A DNA stretch of 64,000 nucleotides, taken from NCBI RefSeq assembly GCF_013167455.1, contig NZ_CP038328.1; one strand, given 5' to 3'. The position numbers are program-made. Below are positions 15,001-18,000 of this stretch, one piece after another; within the stretch, counting starts at the first letter, position 1, and the number at the start of each line of letters is the position of its first letter. The DNA comes from Escherichia coli O157:H7. Its GTDB lineage: Bacteria; Pseudomonadota; Gammaproteobacteria; Enterobacterales; Enterobacteriaceae.

Positions 15001-18000
15001 CAGCCAGAGCCCGGCGCTGCTCCCTGGCTGCCGCAGCAGCCTGACGTCCGCCATTCTGCAGGGTCCGGTAATATTCACTGCCCATACGGGACGCCCGCTG
15101 GATCTCCGACTGGAATGACTGTGAATTTGCCGAAATTTTGATAATCAGTTCACGTAACGTCGCCATTCACCTTTCTCCGGGCGTAAAAAAACCGCCTCAG
15201 CGGTTCTCATCATTCATGACTGTGCTGCAAGGCTCAGCGCGTCTTCCAGCGCCGCAAACGGATCCACCTCCGGCTTATCCTCATCCTCGCCCCAGCAGAG
15301 CATGGCGTCCTTCAGTGCAACATTCATCCCCTGTGCCCCGAAAACCGCTTTCACGATCTGTGCATTACGGATATCCCCGCGCTCATCACCCAGCGGGGAT
15401 ATCCTGTCGAACTCCATCCACATCATCGCCTCGCTCGCACTCAGGCTGTGGCGCAGTTCGGATAAGGTGCGCCCCAGACGGAGCGCAAGTCGCATCAGAA
15501 AGCGAATTTCCGGGCGGGCTACTTTTTTCTGGCCGACTCTGCATCAGCGATCAGTTCCAGTGCCTGACGCAGCAACCGGGCATGTACCGGACCATAGACG
15601 GCCAGCACCTGCTCACGGTCGTCCGGAGTGAACACCCGCTGCAGGTCCGTATCACACAGGACATCGCAGAACAGCGTCACATCCGCTTCCAGGTTACGGC
15701 GGGTTTTCGCCACCACCGACAGGGTATCGTCATCCTCTCCATCACCATTGAGCACTTCCTGCCACAGATACCAGGCCTCTGCCGAAGGCTCCCGCAGCAC
15801 CACGCTGACATTACCCCATTCCGGCACCTTCACCGTTTTATGACGAAACCCTGACAGTCTGGCCAGCGCCAGCGTTTTCAGATCCTTTTTCATGATGACC
15901 CATCCCCTTATCCGGCGGCAGCGCTCACTGTCACGGTGCATTCAACAGACGTCACACTCTGTGCTTTCTCTGCCGAATCGGTCACCACACAGGTATATTT
16001 CCCCGCATCAGCGGACTGCGCACCTGGCTTACTGAAGGTGTCTGTCGTCTGCCCGTCAACCGGCTGACCATCCTTCTTCCAGGCGTATTTATACGGCGGC
16101 GTTCCCCCGTTGGCACTGACTGACATTGTCAGCAGCGCACCGGTATTCACGGTAAGTGTCTTATCCAGATTTTTCACAAACGCCAGCGGTACCACAAAGG
16201 ACACCGGTTTGCCTTTCAGACGCAGTGAGAACGTTGCAGCCACCACGCCGTTGGTACCGGATGACCAGGTGTGCTGGCGCACTTCCGCCAGGAATTTAAA
16301 GCCCTTACCGGACGGAAACAGCACCTTAAACGCATACAACGCGTCATTGTCATAGGCATCACGCAGGGCGTTCTGGGCCTGATTCAGATAAAAATTGCCC
16401 GACATGGAAATCTCAGACGACGCCCCCAGACCATTGATGTTCTCCTGCTCTGTGGAGCAGAGCGTGGTCACATCAATATCCTGTTTCTGCCCGGCGGTGA
16501 ACTGCACTTCCTTGATGGTGCAGTCCAGGCGCAGATATTCCGCCTTATCCATAGTTTCAGCAGTCGCCGGGGCAGATGAAATCATCACCTGCGTCAGCTG
16601 TGAGCGTTCATACAAAGCAGACATTCTGCCTCCTGATAATAAAAAACCCGCACGCGGCGGGGTATGGGTTTTGTAGAAAAAAGAAAAAGTCACACCGTGA
16701 CCTGAAACTCCAGGGTTGCACGGTAACAGCGGTTTTCCGGAATATAGTCCTGCATTTCACTGACGGATCCCGGGGCCAGCAGCATTATGGCTTCACGGGC
16801 GTCCTGACGTATCTGACGCGCCTGCGTCACAGTCCCGGCATAAACGTCTATCTGCACCGACACTGAGGACTCCGCCTGCCCGCCCATCACGTCCGCTGAC
16901 ACCGATGAAATCAGGCTGAAAACCACCCACGGAAGCGCCACCGACGGCCTGCCATCCAGCAGGGGGACCACATACGGGTACACCTGCCCGCCGGCAAGAT
17001 GCGCCAGATGAGGATACAAATCCGCCTCCGTCATCGTCTCAGTACCTCATCAATGGCCCGGTTCATCCGCGCAATCGCCACCTGTGCCGCCTGTTCACTG
17101 CGCACATCAAATGCCGGGCGCACAAACGGGTGCGGTGGCATATTCACGGTCCCCATTTCCACAAACCGCCAGTAGAAAGCATTGCGCGGGTTATCCGCCT
17201 TCATGGTGTTATCGCTGTTACCGGTGTCCGGATTAACACCCCGGATATGCACACCGGATTCCATCCCGCCATCGCGGGAGCACCGGGAAAGGACCACCAC
17301 ATTGCGGCGAAGTTTTCCCCTGCGTACCGGTGCCCGTGACACCACTTCTTCTTTCAGCACATTCGCACCCGCACGGGTTGCCTCACGCAGCACCCGGTTA
17401 TTTTCTGCACCACTCAGAAGCTGCAAATCGCGGCTGATGTCCTCCAGCCCCGAAAAATCCAGCAGGGTTTCGATCATTTTTCCCCTCCCAGCCGACAGAG
17501 AATTTCCAGACGTCCGCCGGTCGCATCCGGCACGGTCACGCCAGGGACCACTCAGCACATGAAGTCGTGACGCTGCCGTGATTTCCCGACCGGACTGACC
17601 GCGCACCCAGATGCGGATTTCCGCCTGCGCCATTTCCGCACCGGACTGCATCCGCTCCCGGCTGCTCCTGCCCCGGATATCCGCATGAATTTTCCCGCAT
17701 GACACCCATTCTTCCGTCATTTCTCCGGCAGCGTTACGGGTTAACACCGGGTTCAGAACACTTATCATCTGTGTCAGACGACCTGCAGATATTGCCATTC
17801 CCCCTCCTCATAACACCGTCGGACAACGCAAATCGTAAATCAGCACGGAAACAGAAAACGGCAGCTCCCCCTGAATCAGTTCTTCCCGCTCCGCAAGATC
17901 CGGATTCCGGTACAGCATCCCGGTCAGTCGCATGGCAGCCCCCTTCATCCGGGTTAATGCCTCGCCCGGGATCAGTTCACCGTCCTCACGAATCACCTTA

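Follow-up and report, generated by a model that had tools for sequence, protein, structure and literature searches.

A reading frame joining head-closure and HK97 gp10-like sequences in a defective prophage of Escherichia coli O157:H7 is attributed to a 26-bp deletion

The 255-residue open reading frame found in the analysed window (a stretch of 64,000 nt from contig NZ_CP038328.1 of Escherichia coli O157:H7, assembly GCF_013167455.1), in which a head-closure-like part and an HK97 gp10-like part are read without interruption, is very probably a pseudogene-type lesion caused by a genuine 26-bp deletion in the head-closure (Hc1) gene of a lambdoid prophage that was already defective. The comparison with intact relatives showed the deletion itself, the change of frame that follows from it, the loss of 27 C-terminal residues of Hc1 and the presence of an intact gp10-like coding sequence provided with its own ribosome binding site. 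The fusion is ordinary prophage decay in well-known genes, and not a new two-domain protein.

An ORF scan of the window returned a single open frame of 255 aa at 17031-17798, in agreement with the original prediction, and placed it on the minus strand, which the prediction had not stated; the proposed two-part composition was borne out by Pfam, since both domains were found above the gathering cut-offs. Phage_HCP (PF05521, head completion/closure) covers residues 3-73 with a score of 50.4 bits against a cut-off of 25 (E = 3.8e-13); the match includes only positions 1-71 of the 106 positions of the profile, the domain being incomplete, with its C-terminal segment absent. HK97-gp10_like (PF04883) covers residues 121-216 (39.2 bits against a cut-off of 21.4, profile positions 3-78 of 78). 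In the PHROGs collection, phrog_25 ("head closure Hc1") matched residues 1-86 (E = 4e-21) and phrog_5 ("tail completion or Neck1 protein") residues 106-255 (E = 2.2e-34). A search of PDB sequences with the gp10-like protein gave only spurious matches to repeat proteins ("Bagel" designs, with no significant individual stretch).

The head-closure part had been expected to comprise about 108 residues, and this holds for residues 1-89 only, which are identical to the intact 116-aa protein. Residues 90-107 (AGCDRRTSGNSLSAGRGK) derive from the original 3' end of the head-closure gene, translated in the wrong frame; in the original frame the same nucleotides, 17478-17531, encode PDATGGRLEILCRLGGEK. 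Codon 89 (Arg) is kept across the junction only by coincidence. Residues 108-255 constitute the complete gp10-like protein of 148 aa, whose sequence is identical to that of WP_000573374.1 from other O157 prophages. Its internal ATG is located at 17475-17477 (residue 108 of the ORF) and, as had been noticed, is preceded by an AGGGGA-type motif, GGGAGGGG at 17482-17489, which ends 4 nt upstream of the start codon. The start codon is the same as in the intact homologues of strain 17B6-2 and phage 2851, and the Shine-Dalgarno-like sequence is shared with 17B6-2, phage 2851 having a single substitution in it. The coordinates of these elements and of the surrounding genes are collected in Table 1.

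Table 1. Positions in the window of the neck genes, of the parts of the fused ORF and of the elements at the end of the tail module
Feature	Position	Strand	Basis
Head-tail connector/adaptor gene Ad1, 108 aa, intact	17808..18134	-	Pfam Phage_connect_1, E = 2.1e-7
Fused ORF: truncated head closure, out-of-frame linker and complete gp10-like part	17031..17798	-	ORF, Pfam, PHROGs
Head-closure (Hc1) remnant, codons 1-89	17532..17798	-	Alignment to intact genes, Pfam, phrog_25
Deletion junction with 3-bp CCG microhomology	17533..17535	-	Alignment to homologues
18 codons of the old head-closure 3' end in the gp10 frame (AGCDRRTSGNSLSAGRGK)	17478..17531	-	Three-frame translation
Shine-Dalgarno-like GGGAGGGG of the gp10-like gene, now inside the fused ORF	17482..17489	-	Sequence
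Original head-closure TGA stop, in ATGA overlap with the gp10 start, now out of frame	17474..17476	-	Translation, alignment
HK97 gp10-like / neck protein (Ne1) CDS, complete, 148 aa and stop	17031..17477	-	PF04883, phrog_5
Tail completion/terminator (gp17-like, Tc1), 114 aa, intact	16690..17034	-	Pfam Tail_completion_gp17, homologue annotation
nleL, type III effector	5777-8125		
espN, type III effector	1785-5186		
IS2 copy	337-1242		

The fused ORF is embedded in an otherwise regular succession of genes. Directly upstream of it lies Ad1, whose homologues are annotated as "head-tail connector protein" or "head-tail adaptor Ad1"; it is followed by Tc1, the ATG of which overlaps the gp10 stop codon as ATGA, and then by the gene of the major tail protein. 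This gene order matches that of the annotated relatives.

Direct alignment of the window with O157:H7 strain 17B6-2 and with phage 2851 revealed one gap of 26 nt in the window and near-identity elsewhere. The missing 26 bp, CCGGATCCTGAACGTTGTCGGGCTGC, correspond to nt 264-289 of the intact head-closure gene and are situated 57 nt upstream of the original TGA. The gap is bounded by a 3-bp CCG microhomology, can be slid over four equivalent positions, and has left the junction sequence GTGACCGTGCCGGATG. A loss of 26 nt does not amount to whole codons; beyond residue 89 the ORF is therefore no longer read in the Hc1 frame, and the 27 residues with which the head-closure protein normally ends (ILNVVGLPVPDATGGRLEILCRLGGEK) are absent from the fused ORF. 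Three-frame translation located the head-closure C-terminus (...VPDATGGRLEILCRLGGEK, followed by the stop) in another frame, with the TGA overlapping the gp10 ATG as ATGA. The intact Hc1 protein aligns from end to end with the solved structure 2KZ4, in which the C-terminal segment missing from the window is strongly conserved (...LNIIGQPLPDAARTRLEILCREGAEK); this segment aligns to the end of 2KZ4, RVLNIIGQPLPDAARTRLEILCREGAEK.

Two explanations for the fusion had been considered originally, namely that the first gene had lost its stop codon, or that a frameshift or sequencing error had gone undetected. Alignment to the homologues places the normal stop where it was anticipated, near 17474, and the TGA at 17474-17476 is intact, unchanged in comparison with the intact homologues and merely bypassed out of frame, which contradicts the first explanation. 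The frameshift was the correct alternative, its cause being the 26-bp deletion upstream of the TGA. A point mutation removing the stop of the first gene, or a programmed ribosomal frameshift site, has nothing in its favour except the existence of the long ORF and is left with practically no probability: the stop codon is the one present in the homologues, in these the 351 nt of Hc1 form one unbroken frame, so that recoding is unneeded, and the change of frame coincides with the loss of 26 bp of DNA and is fully explained by it.

The formation of the chimera by deletion can be pictured as follows. The 26-bp deletion with its CCG microhomology lies inside the Hc1 gene, and reading passes from the Hc1 frame into the frame of the next gene, which by chance is open over the last 28 codons ahead of the gp10-like ATG. 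Ribosomes would consequently miss the Hc1 TGA of the ATGA overlap and run on to the end of the gp10-like gene. With these 28 codons of the gp10 frame free of stops, a fusion results from any +1/-2 shift within the final ~88 nt of Hc1, and phage genes with ATGA overlaps easily yield chimeric ORFs for the same reason.

The two genes are normally separate, as had been supposed. In the annotated relatives that were consulted, one CDS encodes head closure (351 nt, 116 aa) and another the gp10-like protein (447 nt, 148 aa), with a 4-nt ATGA overlap between them. The region had matches in 1,249 records of E. coli and 92 of phages (Stx phages, 2851/BP-4795 group), each match being 26 nt longer than the query (1,471 versus 1,445 nt). 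When a 160-nt query centred on the junction was searched in the 5,426 complete E. coli genomes of RefSeq, 2,907 places in 1,243 of these genomes were found. The junction allele was found in none of the 5,426, no record's best match reaching 99% identity, and the full-coverage matches listed spanned 178-186 nt, mostly 186, which equals 160 + 26. The 26 bp are also present in annotated phages, 2851 for example, and the exact 33-nt junction gave 0 matches in the viral contigs of IMG/VR. One E. coli record that had appeared at 99% identity or above in the search with the region was considered as a carrier of the deletion; this was not reproduced by the junction-centred query, and the record is therefore no carrier.

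The same conclusion of separate genes was reached at the level of translated sequence. In a tblastn search with the 264-aa fused form, the two parts lay in two frames in all 40 of the best 40 phage records, and none of these gave a single-frame fused match. A fused architecture as the norm among homologues, named originally as the result that would overturn the idea of a lesion, was looked for and is not the norm; fusions are rare.

Phage 1717 and phi330, whose matches fell 1 nt short of the others, were examined as possible fusion carriers and rejected, Hc1 being a separate CDS of normal length in both. In phi330 (phage vB_EcoS_phi330, L007 984-1429) two CDSs take the place of the gp10-like gene, and Stx2 phage 1717 (L006 1430-1700) is without an annotated tail-terminator CDS at the place where relatives have one. 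Frameshifts or sequencing errors in this neck module therefore look common.

The deletion in the window is much more likely to be real than to be a sequencing error, as judged from the comparison of assemblies. Positions 1-35000 of the window differ from the syntenic prophage of the O157:H7 strain ECP19-598 by 31 substitutions and a single indel, the 26-bp one; therefore the sequence is not generally indel-prone. The exact 255-aa protein together with the junction is present on contig SRR575717_62 of the Logan assembly of run SRR575717, which over 4,816 nt shows 2 substitutions and no gaps relative to the window; the run may originate from the window's own strain, in which case it confirms the assembly and does not represent an independent lineage. 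An artefact of sequencing or assembly would mean that the source genome possesses the 26 bp and two separate genes. The absence of the junction from every one of the complete RefSeq genomes is in line with such an error, as is the fact that O157 genomes harbour several near-identical prophage paralogues (as many as 8 places in one genome), a situation in which assembly from short reads can go wrong. An artefact nevertheless appears improbable, because a microhomology-bounded loss of 26 bp is untypical of homopolymer or base-calling errors, it is the sole indel in 35 kb against the syntenic prophage, and the same protein and junction were recovered in the separately produced Logan assembly. The undetected sequencing error that had been suspected is thus unlikely, and a real deletion is favoured because a clean loss bounded by microhomology is seen in two assemblies.

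The search of a protein set of 5.8 billion clusters yielded 405 homologous protein clusters, among which fused forms are rare singletons and the stand-alone gp10-like clusters of 148-149 aa dominate (1,197, 783, 710 and 508 members). The proteins containing both domains have lengths of 255, 264, 253, 225 and 195 aa. Alignment showed different junctions in the fused proteins P0002, P0003, P0004, P0005 and P0009, each of which occurs on 1-2 contigs, and they therefore reflect independent lesions or errors. Moreover, phrog_23409 ("unknown function", 264 positions) matches the fused ORF from end to end (PHROGs, E = 1.1e-170), which implies that an Hc1-gp10 chimera was probably deposited before in (pro)phage genomes. 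Hc1-gp10 chimeras produced by frameshifts are the probable source of this family, which may be artefactual.

Head-closure proteins of siphoviruses form a ring under the adaptor, where they retain the DNA and dock the tail. To judge from the sequence, what is left of Hc1 would probably not work as a subunit of this ring; the chimeric protein is unlikely to function because its C-terminal quarter is missing and an appendage of 166 residues has been added. The free gp10-like protein can probably still be made, by internal initiation at 17477, and the normal coupling of termination and reinitiation at the ATGA would be lost. It could be proposed that the fusion is functional and selected, serving as a covalent head-closure/neck protein in virion assembly, as the ORF is uninterrupted, its gp10-like part is complete, and several fused proteins and one fused PHROG family are present in the databases. 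This proposal is highly unlikely to be correct, since the conserved last 27 residues of Hc1 are replaced by out-of-frame sequence, the fused forms are not conserved but differ in their junctions and are limited to 1-2 contigs each, the best phage records all keep the two frames, and the prophage that hosts the ORF is devoid of tail-tip and fibre genes.

It is also conceivable that the chimera disturbs the assembly of necks by co-resident prophages, Stx phages among them, acting as a dominant-negative poison or as an altered adaptor. The truncated Hc1, tethered to a complete Ne1, would have to co-assemble with the near-identical neck proteins of these prophages, and we regard this as very doubtful; if true, the chimera would change the particle yield in this strain lineage. 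Loss of Hc1 through prophage decay remains the preferred reading.

The prophage is, on the basis of its gene content and flanks, of the Sp6/CP-933N type and already defective; the assignment of the locus to Sp6, based partly on the effector gene numbering, is presumably correct. The flank at 44000-64000 exhibits 100% identity to many O157:H7 genomes (EDL933, SS17, TW14359, ECP19-598) and carries mfd, ndh and lolCDE beside a phage integrase. The head module is HK97-like, with a portal protein of 859 aa and a protease-capsid fusion of 645 aa, and it is accompanied by a type-1 neck module (Ad1-Hc1-Ne1-Tc1), an Ig-domain major tail protein, tail chaperones and a tape measure. Both the portal (859 aa) and the tape measure (1080 aa) are intact in the window. 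The tail module ends after a K-like JAB/NlpC-P60 peptidase (8429-9166) and a short tail-assembly remnant. No J, tail-tip or tail-fibre genes were found in the prophage, the tail module being replaced by nleL, espN, a gogB remnant (within 1-9166) and IS2. Copies of the neck module are numerous in related O157 genomes, amounting to 4-5 paralogues, with up to 8 matching places per genome.

Defects of portal, head, minor tail and host specificity have been assigned to Sp6, and defective O157 prophages were shown to be complementable by co-resident ones (PMC2669165). The absence of J and fibre genes from the prophage of the window agrees with this account of Sp6 as defective in morphogenesis. The Hc1 defect is without obvious cost, because the prophage already lacks host-specificity genes; the formation of particles would need Hc1, tail tip and fibres supplied by co-resident prophages. 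Sakai Sp4, which has lambda-type head genes and an IS-disrupted nu1 (PMC2669165), was also considered as the identity of the prophage and was ruled out by the HK97-like head module and the nleL/espN cargo.

Other features of the same prophage were recorded. In the tape measure gene (11924-15166, minus strand), 24 of the 31 substitutions relative to ECP19-598 are clustered in 720 bp, at 12854-13573, which suggests a patch of recombination or gene conversion from a paralogous prophage. The product of the portal gene (18137-20716, minus strand) has a normal Phage_portal domain (residues 54-382) and, beyond it, a long extension at the C-terminus in which no significant Pfam domain was detected; the extension contains (window 18597-19129) 3.3 tandem copies of a 162-bp (54-aa) unit with 95% identity (IPVPRDGRDYDPEVLQKAVNDAVANIPQPADGKSLTPDDVRPMLEQMVKEAVSH). 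The 645-aa "major capsid protein" at 20928-22865 (minus strand) combines, within one ORF, a prohead serine protease domain (Peptidase_S78, residues 48-152) and a capsid domain (residues 386-635).

The annotation of the region should list a frameshifted pseudogene for head closure and, after it, an intact HK97 gp10-like gene; beyond annotation the finding matters little. The 26-bp deletion can serve as a strain-specific marker and adds to the known independent decay of Sp6/CP-933N-type prophages in O157:H7. Chimeras of this type may already sit in family databases as proteins of unknown function, as suggested by phrog_23409.

Sakai Sp6 and EDL933 CP-933N share with the prophage of the window the chromosomal neighbourhood (on the side of mfd, ndh and lolCDE), the effector cargo and the truncation of the tail module. 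In EDL933, at the same site, the portal is frameshifted and the tape measure truncated, with Hc1 and gp10 intact, whereas the window has the Hc1 deletion but intact portal and tape measure. O157 lineages have therefore accumulated different lesions in the same prophage.

Compared with genuine Hc1 proteins (PF05521; phrog_25; 2KZ4, "putative head-tail adaptor"; WP_001007905.1), the fused ORF holds their position in the type-1 neck, between Ad1 and the gp10-like and Tc1 genes, and its residues 1-89 are identical to the WP_001007905.1 type. It differs from them in being deprived of the conserved last 27 residues (ILNVVGLPVPDATGGRLEILCRLGGEK) and in running into the next gene without a stop. Residues 108-255 are identical to the stand-alone 148-aa HK97 gp10-like/Neck1 protein (Ne1; PF04883; phrog_5; WP_000573374.1). 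As in the stand-alone gene, its own ATG and ribosome binding site are kept, and the stop codon overlaps the start of the tail-terminator gene as in the relatives. The difference is that in the window the gp10-like sequence can also be translated as the C-terminal part of the 255-aa chimera, since the stop codon upstream of it no longer lies in the translated frame.

The other fusions (P0002, P0003, P0004, P0005 and P0009; phrog_23409) likewise combine the two domains within a single ORF and, as in the window, make use of the open part of the gp10 frame that precedes the ATG. Their lesions are different from that of the window and include 1-nt shifts elsewhere, other deletions and one in-frame deletion; they measure 264, 253, 225 and 195 aa. 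Unlike the Hc1-gp10 fusion, the protease-capsid fusion of the head module is shared with syntenic prophages, forming a single CDS of 1,938 nt in both of those examined, ECP19-598 and EDL933.
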